Part shown: piece by piece, positions 11,386-13,471 of the stretch | Layout of the letters: each line of letters opens with the position of its first letter | Position numbering within the stretch: the stretch's first letter is position 1 | Notes under the pieces: model-generated | Database searches by the model: none | Told to the model about the DNA's origin: nothing | What the model saw: the letters and a program-made list of their open reading frames with translations, nothing else | Position numbers and translations under genes: made by a program | DNA from: an uncultured Gemmatimonadales bacterium | GTDB taxonomy: Bacteria > Gemmatimonadota > Gemmatimonadetes > Gemmatimonadales > GWC2-71-9 | Assembly (NCBI GenBank): GCA_963779755.1 | Contig: CAVZZO010000002.1 | Location: forward strand, 1-14,916 | Length of the DNA stretch: 14,916 bases | Direction: 5' to 3'

Positions 11386-11525
11386 GCCTAACGACCTGCG
11401 TTTCAGCGGCGGTGCGATGCCCCGCTCCCTCACAATCCTACGCTTCCATCGCGCGAGCGCTAGACCCTCGGAGATGCCCCAAGCGGCCGCAGCCCCGGCC
11501 TGACTGCTGCAAACACGTGTTAGGT
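11386..11525 (-). other. Integron attC site (140 bp)
   Basis: Minus strand: R'' ACCTAAC, 5-nt spacer ACGTG, L'' TTTGCAGC (extra base at position 4), L' GCTGAAA, spacer CGCAGGTC, R' GTTAGGC. Confidence 0.9.
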
Positions 11526-11565
11526 CGTTCTGGCCGCGGGCGCTCCGCCGAGAGTAGATTTCTGG

Positions 11566-11847
11566 ATGGATCTCGAGTTCGAGTGGGACCCCCGCAAGGC
11601 GGCGGCGAACCTGAGGACACACGGTGTCGCCTTTGAGGAGGCGGTGACCGCATTCGCCGATCCGCACTCGATCACGATCCCGGACCCGGATCATTCGATG
11701 GACGAGGAGCGCTTCGTCTTGATCGGGCGCTCGGCAGTGCAACGCTTGTTGGTGGTGCTACACCTCGAACGGGGCGAGCGGATTCGCCTCATCAGCGCCC
11801 GCCTGGCGGCGGGGCGCGAGCGACGGACCTATGAAGAAGACTCCTAA
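11566..11847 (+). CDS. brnT: BrnT-family toxin (type II TA)
   Basis: [46 protein letters not shown]. Confidence 0.93.
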
Positions 11848-12097
11848 GCCCAGCCCGGGGCGCCGCAGTCGCGTGGGGGAGATGCGCGCCGAGTACGATT
11901 TCAGTGGCGGCGAGCGTGGCAAGTATGCCAAGCGGTTCGGCAAGGGTGCCACCATGGTGGTGCTGGATCCAGACGTCGCGGCTGCCTTTCCCACGGGAGC
12001 GGACGTCAACCGCGCGCTGCGGGCCATTCTCGAAGCCGCCCCAAGGCGCGCGCCCAAGCGTCCTTCTGTCAAGATGAGCAACCGGGATGATGGGTAA
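11831..12097 (+). CDS. BrnA-like antitoxin; last 9 residues derive from the IS end
   Basis: [38 protein letters not shown]; overlaps brnT by 17 nt. Confidence 0.85.
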
Positions 12098-13377
12098 CAG
12101 AGTTGTCCGGCAACATGGGTAACACTCTGGGGCTACCCGCGAATGATATAGTCTCGTTCATCGAGCTTGGCTAGGAGGACGGTGTTGAAGTAGATCGACC
12201 AGACTCCATTATCGGATTCCTCCAAGCCAATGTGGTGGTGGGTCAAGCTCTGGGCAATGAAGAGCAGGCGGTGCTGGAAGCGGAAGGTGCCGCCGGTGGT
12301 GATCTTCTTGACGAGGTAGTGTCCTGGGTATTCCTGGGGTGGGAGGACGCGGGGATACGGGCGCGGGGAGGGGCGGTACTGGGATGCCGGGGTCTGGCCC
12401 CCGAGGGTATCATGGGGCCGCTCCTCGTTGTATTCGGTGCGAAAGCGATTGAAGGCGCGCTGCTGGGCGGCCGCATTGTCCCGCGGGGGGCCGGATGGCG
12501 CTCCGCTTGAGGGTCCGATGCATCCGTTCGTGCGCGCCATTCTGCTGGGGTCGCCTGGGTGGATCCGCTGGTGCTGGATGCCGAGGCGCATCCACCAGAC
12601 ATTGAGCTTCGAGAGCCCGTGGATGCCGGAGGTGGCGAAGGGCACCCCATTGTCGGTCCGAATGGCCCGAGGCAAGCCATAGGCCCGAAAGGCCCGCTCG
12701 AAGATCGCGCGAGCCGGCAGGCCATGAGTGGACGGAAGCCCGTGGCAGGTGAGCAGGTACCGGGTGTGCAGGTCCGCGATGGTGAGCGGGTAGCAGTAGA
12801 TCCCGTCCCGAGTCGTGAACTGGCCCTTGAAGTCCGCGGTCCAGAGGTCATTGGGCTCGTGCGTGGTCGGTGGGACCACACCCGGGTGCTGGTGGGGGCG
12901 TCGGCGGCGGCGCTTGACCAGGAGCCCCTGCCGGCTGAGCAGATCATTGACCGTGCTGACGGCGGGCCAGACGATACGAGGATGTCGAGGGGCGAGGTAG
13001 TCGAGTAGCTTCCCCGCGCCCCAGTCTGGGTGCTTTCGGCGGGTCGTGCAGAGCAGGTCGGCAAGCGCGTCGGAGATCCGATGTGGGCAGTGGTGAGGGG
13101 CGCGACTCTGGTCGGCCAGGGCCGGACGGCCCCCCTCCTCGAAGCGGGCCAGCCATTTGTAGCCGGTCTTCCGGCTGATACCATAGCGGGCGCAGAGCTC
13201 GGTGACAGGGTAGAGGCCCTGTCGGTAGTCGGCAATGAACTTGATACGCTGGTCCATGGGGACAGTCTCCAACCACGGCATCGGTCCGACTCCCGTCGAA
13301 GGGGAAGACCAGCAGTTTAGGGGAAGTGTCACCCATGTTCCCGGACAGAAGTGTTACCTATGTACCCGGTTTGTACC
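12067..13377 (-). mobile_element. IS481-family insertion sequence (~1.31 kb)
   Basis: Imperfect 47-bp inverted repeats at 12080-12126 and 13325-13371, each with two subrepeats at 25-bp period. One end begins TGT (12067). Removing 12067-13377 restores a palindrome and an in-frame brnA stop. Confidence 0.85.
12133..13281 (-). CDS. IS481-family DDE transposase with two compensating frameshifts
   Basis: MPWLET start, HTH LCARYGISRKTGYKWLARF, WTADFKG, IRTDNGVPF, YNEERPH. The PQQNGAHERMHRTLK motif is present only in an alternative frame. Confidence 0.9.
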   Translation of the reverse strand: MPWLETVPMDQRIKFIADYRQGLYPVTELCARYGISRKTGYKWLARFEEGGRPALADQSRAPHHCPHRISDALADLLCTTRRKHPDWGAGKLLDYLAPRHPRIVWPAVSTVNDLLSRQGLLVKRRRRRPHQHPGVVPPTTHEPNDLWTADFKGQFTTRDGIYCYPLTIADLHTRYLLTCHGLPSTHGLPARAIFERAFRAYGLPRAIRTDNGVPFATSGIHGLSKLNVWWMRLGIQHQRIHPGDPSRMARTNGCIGPSSGAPSGPPRDNAAAQQRAFNRFRTEYNEERPHDTLGGQTPASQYRPSPRPYPRVLPPQEYPGHYLVKKITTGGTFRFQHRLLFIAQSLTHHHIGLEESDNGVWSIYFNTVLLAKLDERDYIIRG

Positions 13378-13384
13378 GAGGACG

Positions 13385-13471
13385 ACCTAACACGCCAATG
13401 CAGCCGGCGAGCGCGCCAATGCTGCGCCTCTGGCGCGAGCGCGCTCGCGGCTGATTGGCACGCCGTTAGAC
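13385..13471 (+). other. Integron attC site (87 bp), opposite orientation to the other sites
   Basis: Plus strand: R'' ACCTAAC, 5-nt spacer ACGCC, L'' AATGCAGC (extra base at position 4), stem CG(G)CGAGCGCGC/GCGCGCTCGCG, L' GCTGATT, spacer GGCACGCC, R' GTTAGAC. Confidence 0.92.

Follow-up and report, generated by a model that had tools for sequence, protein, structure and literature searches.

One attC site in a natural integron cassette array faces the opposite way to its neighbours. The array occupies positions 10.8–14.9 kb of a 14,916-nucleotide (nt) stretch of contig CAVZZO010000002.1 from an uncultured soil Gemmatimonadales bacterium, the whole of which we refer to as the window, and is the distal end of a minus-strand array. 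The reversed site, attC2, closes a plus-polarity unit that carries a brnT toxin gene, an open reading frame (ORF) in antitoxin position and an insertion sequence (IS). The original prediction, made by a model from the sequence and its ORFs, had placed this site on the plus strand and the remaining attC sites on the minus strand, and had proposed that a brnTA cassette integrated backwards into the R'' box of a neighbouring attC. Its coordinates and motifs all check out, and its strand calls are those returned both by a locally built covariance model and by a count of base pairs. We give about an even chance to a history in which a brnT-antitoxin cassette in the usual sense arrangement was inserted backwards at the R'' box of a neighbouring cassette's attC, either because R'' was used in the manner of a secondary site or because the top strand of the target was used.

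Five sites of the array (attC1–attC4 and attC6, the last located on a second contig, L002, which overlaps the window; Table 1) have one architecture in common. A 7-nt R box is followed by a 2-nt loop, a 3-bp stem and an L box of 3 nt, a bulge and 4 nt; the other arm returns with 4 + 3 nt of L box, a 3-bp stem, a 5-nt loop and a 7-nt R box. This architecture reads on the minus strand in attC1, attC3, attC4 and attC6, and on the plus strand in attC2. Inner pairs were counted under the fixed architecture, a measure of structure only that is blind to sequence similarity. By this count, attC2 formed 10/10 pairs on the plus strand and 6/10 on the minus strand, while the other four sites formed 9–10/10 on the minus strand and 3–7/10 on the plus strand. 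Upon shuffling of the attC2 interior, none of 2000 sequences reached ten pairs. A covariance model, R1, was trained on attC1, attC3, attC4 and attC6, without attC2, and searched with filters off over the window and L002. It likewise assigned attC2 to the plus strand (48.8 bits, E 1.5e-11; the minus strand gave 11.1 bits, E 0.56). On their wrong strands, the training sites scored 8.8–12.8 bits. Including a partial, hand-read site at the end of L002 (attC7), polarity is readable at six sites, five of which are minus and one plus.

The ends of attC2, ACCTAAC ... GTTAGAC, fit the RYYYAAC/GTTRRRY boxes, and its length of 87 nt fits the range of 57–141 nt given for attC sites (PMC5027507, PMC12901181). 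On the plus strand, and only there, attC2 shows bulged G residues at positions 16 and 23, which enclose a 6-bp stem, CAGCCG, on the arm by RYYYAAC. These features match the published geometry, in which extrahelical bases by the L'' box occupy positions 16 and 23/24 with 6 bp of stem in between (Nivina 2016, PMC5027507), R'' (RYYYAAC) being the left-hand end of an attC (PMC12901181). The G-CAGCCG-G arm of attC2 recurs on the minus strand in attC6, and a near copy, G-CAGCTG-G, is found on the minus strand in the partial attC7 (hand-read). The bulged arm of attC2 is on the side of the antitoxin gene and the IS, away from the gene at 13476–14030. Folding energies of the two strands were inconsistent as a cue to polarity, the bottom strand being the more stable one for attC2 and attC3 and not for attC1, and they were left unused. 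In the minimum-energy fold of the attC1 minus strand (11386–11531), the 5-nt loop and the start of R' pair with the extension of R'' in an 8-bp alternative register, and not as the canonical R box.

The plus-polarity unit is bounded at either end by a G|TT crossover point. It has the outline of a linear cassette, starting with TTAGGT directly after a G and ending with the G of R' before TT. Read on the minus strand, the right-hand junction is the AA|C of the R'' box of the 13476–14030 cassette. The polarity of five attC sites, the exact G|TT junctions and the presence of the arrangement in two assemblies are direct observations: an 80-mer across the left junction and a 141-mer across the right one (13360–13500) are identical in L002. 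As the two assemblies differ elsewhere, by single-nucleotide polymorphisms (SNPs) and in the structure of the IS, this identity argues against the misassembly that the original prediction had considered.

The cassette ends pair as that prediction had described. Positions 11519–11531 are complementary to 13379–13391 at 12 of 13 positions, and 13465–13477 are complementary to 14043–14055 to the same extent. Both pairings lie above non-cognate combinations. At the six positions beyond the conserved 7-mer, cognate ends match at 5, 1, 4, 6, 5 and 5 positions, as compared to 0–3 in 30 non-cognate combinations, indicating that the pairing exceeds chance; extended R-box complementarity is seen in five of six cassettes. 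The further conclusion, that brnTA plus its attC must for this reason be a complete plus-oriented cassette, does not follow, since an all-minus array predicts the same pairs. The sole anomaly is the flipped interior of attC2 (13392–13464, 73 nt). Deletion of 11520–13465 on paper leaves all attC sites on the minus strand, and the rejoined site has the R'' 7-mer GTCTAAC, which is found also in attC6.

In the history that we favour, the circular cassette would have carried brnT, the antitoxin gene and its own attC2, all in the usual sense arrangement, and would have recombined via its normal bottom strand. Its target would have been the G|TT shown by the R'' of the neighbouring attC on the opposite strand, not the R' of an attC or attI; the complement of an R'' box is a perfect GTTRRRY. 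R'' might have served as a double-stranded secondary (attG-like) site, or else the target attC's top strand might have been folded and cleaved, and replication would then have fixed the product. The brnT cassette would now lie backwards between the R'' box (13465–13471) and the body (11386–11519) of one former attC, the attC1 body being the original attC of the 13476–14030 cassette, and an IS481-family element would have been inserted later at the 3' end of the antitoxin gene. In this scheme we infer the order of events, the enzyme and which attC body first belonged to which gene. The original prediction of a non-canonical crossover at R'' is partly supported, in that one non-canonical event is needed; it is not singled out by the sequence, as three histories give an identical product.

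We favour a backward insertion because a single unusual step suffices and all cassettes then keep the usual sense arrangement. The course of the antitoxin frame also speaks for it. If CCGG (12082–12085 and 13366–13369), a possible 4-bp target duplication of the IS, is taken as such, the frame (255 nt to 12085) resumes at 13370 and runs into a TAA (13388–13390) inside the plus-strand R'' of attC2. A parallel is provided by attC3, where the stop codon of the PemK gene, TGA, lies inside the R'' box, GCCTGAC (14108–14114), which is unlike the usual ...TAAC. Moreover, the other brnTA cassette of the array, a brnT/CopG-BrnA pair on L002 (12586–11917), reads in the sense direction relative to its attC6. 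Integrases are documented to act on double-stranded GWT secondary sites, and a self-promoted toxin-antitoxin cassette would stay functional, and be kept, when backwards.

A number of points weigh against this reading. Both 12/13 end pairings fit rival histories equally well; the same pairings would arise in an ordinary all-minus array whose brnTA lies antisense in a cassette spanning 13390 to 11394. The polarity calls draw on site geometry and the surrounding genes, in a phylum outside those with a studied integrase, and model R1 is built from four sites only, two of which (attC1 and attC6) are similar to attC2 in the L'' box. The extra base is a G on the top strand in four of the five sites, giving a C on the bottom strand, where extrahelical bases are usually G and T (Nivina 2016, PMC5027507). 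The spacer in all five array sites is a 2 × 5 loop with a 3-bp stem (or 5 vs 8 nt), the usual attC spacer being 5–6 nt per arm (PMC5027507); because it is common to all five, this spacer is a lineage trait. The IS ends and the target duplication were placed by eye, and an in-frame antitoxin stop within the R'' of attC2 has a chance expectation of 1 in 3. A promoter scan found no sigma-70-like promoter on the plus strand upstream of brnT. There is no intI integrase gene among the scanned ORFs of the window and L002 (27.6 kb); the array continues past the end of L002, and intI may lie beyond. In addition, a search for the empty allele, which the original prediction had proposed, returned neither such an allele nor an independent copy of either cassette, the only related contig, L002, having the identical arrangement.

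The main rival is a flip of the attC body in situ. The array would have been an ordinary one, in which attC2 ended the 13476–14030 cassette and brnTA lay antisense in the attC1 cassette, until the 73-bp interior of attC2 was inverted. We consider this history unlikely, and it is with the same reserve that we name its possible routes, template switching at the hairpin during replication or an integrase reaction between two inverted core sites. It yields the exact sequence observed and accounts for both 12/13 pairings. Toxin-antitoxin cassettes are often antisense in Vibrio arrays, and the occurrence of an attC2-type site, attC7, in normal minus polarity in the array (hand-read) indicates that this type of attC is native. 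Integrase-dependent inversions between inverted GTTRRRY-like sites have, moreover, been seen on a plasmid (PMC10127599). However, the exchange would have to be confined to the 5–7 bp of the R boxes, outside the bulges and the 2 × 5 loop; if it occurred in the GC-rich inner stem, which is much longer, the loop alone would be turned. A search of the full-text literature revealed no report of such an attC flip. An antitoxin ORF that reaches, and with the IS allowed for stops in, the TAA of an R box would be a coincidence under this history, and the sense arrangement of the array's other brnTA cassette would likewise go against it. A different inversion, between two co-oriented attC sites with one of them acting via its top strand, was rejected, as it would turn both bodies and attC1 is not turned.

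The same final sequence would also result if the 13476–14030 cassette had carried attC2, with its gene antisense to the site, and had entered the normal R' of attC3 via its own top strand. Top-strand recombination of wild-type attC sites is detectable in the laboratory, but at frequencies 1000–10000 times below those of bottom strands (Nivina 2016, PMC5027507), and top-strand donors were down to background in genome-insertion assays (10.1101/2022.09.11.507474). Two unusual features would be needed, an antisense promoterless gene and a top-strand donor, and brnTA would be left antisense as well; furthermore, the 13476–14030 gene, which starts 19 nt past the cassette boundary and has its stop abutting R'', looks like that of a normal sense cassette of the array. 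We therefore regard this history as improbable. It is no more probable that nothing happened at all, the asymmetry of attC2 being a tolerated natural variant without bearing on strand choice in this lineage and the array an ordinary one. While the extrahelical bases and the spacer of the array sites do depart from the textbook in identity and length, four array sites share their geometry on the minus strand, and attC2, read on the opposite one, agrees with it pair by pair, down to the G-CAGCCG-G arm seen in attC6; a change of polarity by point changes would need several coordinated insertions or deletions on both arms. An assembly artefact at the hairpin, or a rearrangement involving the adjacent IS, seems to us very improbable. 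The two sources are apparently both metagenome assemblies, the IS is 8–14 nt away from the extended R box of attC2 and has no clear-cut target duplication, and array segments have been inverted by IS copies in Vibrio cholerae (10.1101/2023.08.31.555669). Yet the junction 80-mer and 141-mer recur unchanged in a contig with SNPs and a 1.4-kb difference in the structure of the IS region, the flipped part is bounded by the G|TT points of R boxes and not by IS ends, and one IS breakpoint by itself cannot turn only attC2 to the plus strand and keep both attC3 and attC1 minus.

Compared to canonical insertion by attI × attC or attC × attC recombination, in which a bottom strand recombines at the G|TT of R', the backward insertion that we favour would involve the same site family, the same G|TT points and the same cassette outline (TTRRRY at the start, attC and G at the end). 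What would set it apart is that recombination happens at a G|TT of the opposite strand, within the R'' of an attC, which leaves cassette and attC inverted relative to the array. In known cassettes with antisense genes, the attC still points with the array, while here the attC itself is reversed. Both conceivable routes have published precedents. In genomes, attC bottom strands are inserted at double-stranded 5'-GWT-3' motifs, and whichever strand bears the motif determines the orientation (10.1101/2022.09.11.507474). Such attG or secondary-site insertions (10.1101/2022.09.11.507474; PMC10127599) resemble the present case in combining a bottom strand with a double-stranded GWT, the complement of R'' being a GTTRRRY; the targets that these sources describe lie outside integron sites, while here the target would be within another attC and the product would stay in the array. 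The laboratory top-strand recombination described in PMC5027507 concerns, in engineered assays, the top strand of a donor attC at attI, and here it would be that of a target attC inside a natural array. The IS-mediated inversion of array segments reported in 10.1101/2023.08.31.555669 also leaves attC sites that point against the remainder of the array, but there two inverted boundary copies of an IS turn all sites between them, and here a single 87-nt site is turned, with boundaries in the R boxes. Finally, toxin-antitoxin cassettes with their own promoters are described from sedentary chromosomal integrons (Richard et al. 2024, PMC13108822), in which such modules are scattered through the array; here toxin-antitoxin modules make up three of the six cassettes seen.

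A key experimental study (PMC5027507) says of backward cassettes, for mobile as for chromosomal integrons, that they "have never been observed". Our full-text search, with subscription-only literature outside its scope, found no report of a single reversed attC within a natural array; the related phenomena that the sources describe are whole-array inversions, IS-mediated segment inversions, inverted-integrase integrons and off-target inversions. IntegronFinder clusters attC sites on the same strand only (10.1101/030866), so that reversed sites would be dropped by routine annotation, and such events may be systematically overlooked. With a likelihood that we place a little below even, the locus would be a natural record of a backward cassette, with an inverse core within the array as target, a composite cassette, and a module between inverted attC sites.

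Recombination between attC3 and attC1 would be expected to excise the 13476–14030 gene, brnT with its antitoxin gene, and the IS as one composite cassette. The recombinogenic strand of attC2 should be the DNA strand opposite to the one that serves its neighbours. The sites attC1 and attC2 are a presumptive inverted pair that flanks a toxin-antitoxin module. A crossover between the two would, on paper, flip the module and pass the reversed status on to the other site. If this is true, the module between the inverted attC sites could be an integrase-driven invertible segment or a lock on part of the array. Strand selectivity is a central tenet of integron biology, as it keeps all cassettes facing the promoter. 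A verified natural case would mean that rare off-pathway reactions known from the laboratory leave traces in genomes; attC2, attC1 and the R'' boxes would be natural substrates for telling which route was used. It would also raise the matter of how an inverted attC pair affects array stability: composite cassettes may form, inversion may take the place of excision, and the toxin-antitoxin module may enforce retention. Integron specialists should find real interest in the case, which stands on two metagenome assemblies.

Table 1. Features of the window and of the overlapping contig L002. Positions refer to the window unless L002 is given; R1, covariance model score; pairs, inner pairs under the fixed architecture.
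Feature	Position	Strand	Remarks
Housekeeping-type genes	1–10,800		amidase, UvrD-type helicase, histidine kinase, seryl-tRNA synthetase, nucleotidyl transferases, metallo-β-lactamase (MBL)-fold hydrolase
R''-like box + 6-nt extension of last cassette	10787–10799	−	11/13 complementary to cassette start 11394–11382
Last cassette ORF, 180 amino acids (aa)	10836–11378	−	GC falls to 0.525 here
attC1, long, 140 nt	11386–11525	−	R1 98.4 bits minus vs 9.6 plus (training member); 10/10 vs 5/10 pairs; 75% identical to attC4 over 84 nt
Junction 1, G|TT crossover point, left end of plus unit	11519–11520		80-mer across it identical in L002
Plus-polarity unit (brnT, antitoxin ORF, IS, attC2)	11520–13465	+	
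brnT toxin gene, 93 aa	11566–11847	+	PF04365 BrnT_toxin, E 1.8e-26
Antitoxin-position ORF, 88 aa	11831–12097	+	overlaps brnT; last codons and stop in IS sequence
IS481-family insertion sequence	12080–13371 (outer limit)	−	12086–13365 if CCGG is the target duplication
attC2, 87 nt	13385–13471	+	R1 48.8 bits plus vs 11.1 minus (not a training member); 10/10 vs 6/10 pairs
Junction 2, G|TT crossover point, right end of plus unit	13465–13466		141-mer 13360–13500 identical in L002
Cassette ORF, 184 aa, helical	13476–14030	−	"HEPN-like" gene of the original prediction
attC3, short, 66 nt	14049–14114	−	R1 57.5 bits minus vs 8.8 plus (training member); 10/10 vs 3/10 pairs
Sense toxin-antitoxin cassette	14109–14674	−	ribbon-helix-helix (RHH) antitoxin 14432–14674 (PF01402, E 3.8e-07); PemK/MazF toxin 14109–14516 (PF02452, E 5.2e-31)
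attC4, long	14784–14916	−	cut by window end; window part 55.6 bits
attC4, complete	L002 10165–10305	−	R1 90.1 bits minus
IS30-family element	L002 10320–11390		transposase NF033563, E 3e-87
SnoaL-like cassette gene	L002 11409–11849		
attC6	L002 11880–11983	−	
Second brnT/CopG-BrnA pair	L002 12586–11917	−	
attC7, first 52 nt	L002 contig end	−	partial, hand-read

Of the two names in the label "brnTA" used by the original prediction, BrnT is borne out by a family match, while brnA is positional only: the 88-aa ORF in antitoxin position matched no Pfam or NCBIfam family. The second brnT pair, by contrast, has matches to PF12441 and NF047399. The IS481-family element, about 1.3 kb long, was absent from the earlier account. 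It has inverted repeats at 12080–12126 and 13325–13371 (47 nt, 79%) and a minus-strand transposase gene (12133–13332) with rve, HTH_32 and LZ_Tnp_IS481 domains, which scores 189.8 bits against NF033577, under the cutoff of 224. The corresponding IS of L002 (6293–8741) has, relative to the window, 1437 extra bases and 255 absent ones. The extra bases lie at window position ~12277 and hold ORFs 6329–7516 and 6559–7629, neither with a family match; the L002 element is without window positions 12473–12728, which truncates the transposase.

The housekeeping-type genes of positions 1–10,800 have a GC content of 63–75%. From ~10,800 on, GC drops to 52–69% and the sequence turns into the cassette array, in which minus-strand ORFs are parted by hairpin sites with RYYYAAC/GTTRRRY boxes at both ends. 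Five of the six cassettes have their genes on the minus strand, and in these the stop codons fall at, or shortly ahead of, the bulged arm of a minus-polarity site. The array may belong to a sedentary chromosomal integron or be a cluster of attC sites without an integrase (CALIN). Its last cassette ORF gave no Pfam, NCBIfam or PADLOC match, and a complete terminal attC of this cassette is not recognisable in window positions 10640–10800, where model R1 finds no site. The distal array end adjoins the MBL-fold hydrolase gene (9779–10633).

The two long attC sites have a conserved core in their variable terminal region (TCACAANCCTACGCTTCCA; 11431–11449 and 14829–14847), which lies within the 84-nt repeat that is 75% identical between them. 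With this core as query, a scan of genome contigs returned three loci. Two of them are on contig CAWCVB010000013.1 (12,696 nt, a metagenome-assembled genome of an uncultured Gemmatimonadales bacterium; L002/L003); the third (L001), on a Lachnospiraceae contig, was taken as a chance match. Outside the IS, L002 is ~99% identical to window positions 5807–14916, and it lengthens the array by 2.4 kb. Over window positions 12728–14916 the two contigs differ at 20 single bases, 17 of which lie in a 211-nt stretch (14217–14427) of the PemK/MazF toxin gene; this cluster marks either a hotspot of local divergence or a patch exchanged by recombination. In the part added by L002, the IS30-family element is situated between the SnoaL-like cassette gene and attC4. 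The cassette of the SnoaL-like gene is the only one without extended end complementarity (1/6), and its present attC may for this reason not be its own.

The protein encoded at 13476–14030 had been labelled HEPN-like in the original prediction. The label goes back to a conserved RNRLxH motif and is unconfirmed; HEPN domains carry an Rx4-6H motif within a four-helix up-down bundle. The protein has no Pfam, NCBIfam or PADLOC family, and a set of 5.8 billion proteins yielded three homologues, among them P0002, 60% identical and encoded on a 1771-nt Joint Genome Institute (JGI) contig, and P0003, from an Armatimonadetes metagenome-assembled genome. The motif, R117-N-R-L-x-H122, is invariant in all four sequences. 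A structure model of the protein is helical, with a predicted local distance difference test score (pLDDT) of 75.1, and a fold search with it gave no PDB match at E ≤ 0.001 (best 0.35).

Rfam gave no match in the window. Outside the array, intergenic repeats based on GGACTGAG/GGACTAAG are located at 8421–8540 and 9750–9772; one of these is a 28-nt inverted repeat, 89% complementary, with arms 64 nt apart, and the other is a short GGACTAA tandem run after the gene that ends at 9748.

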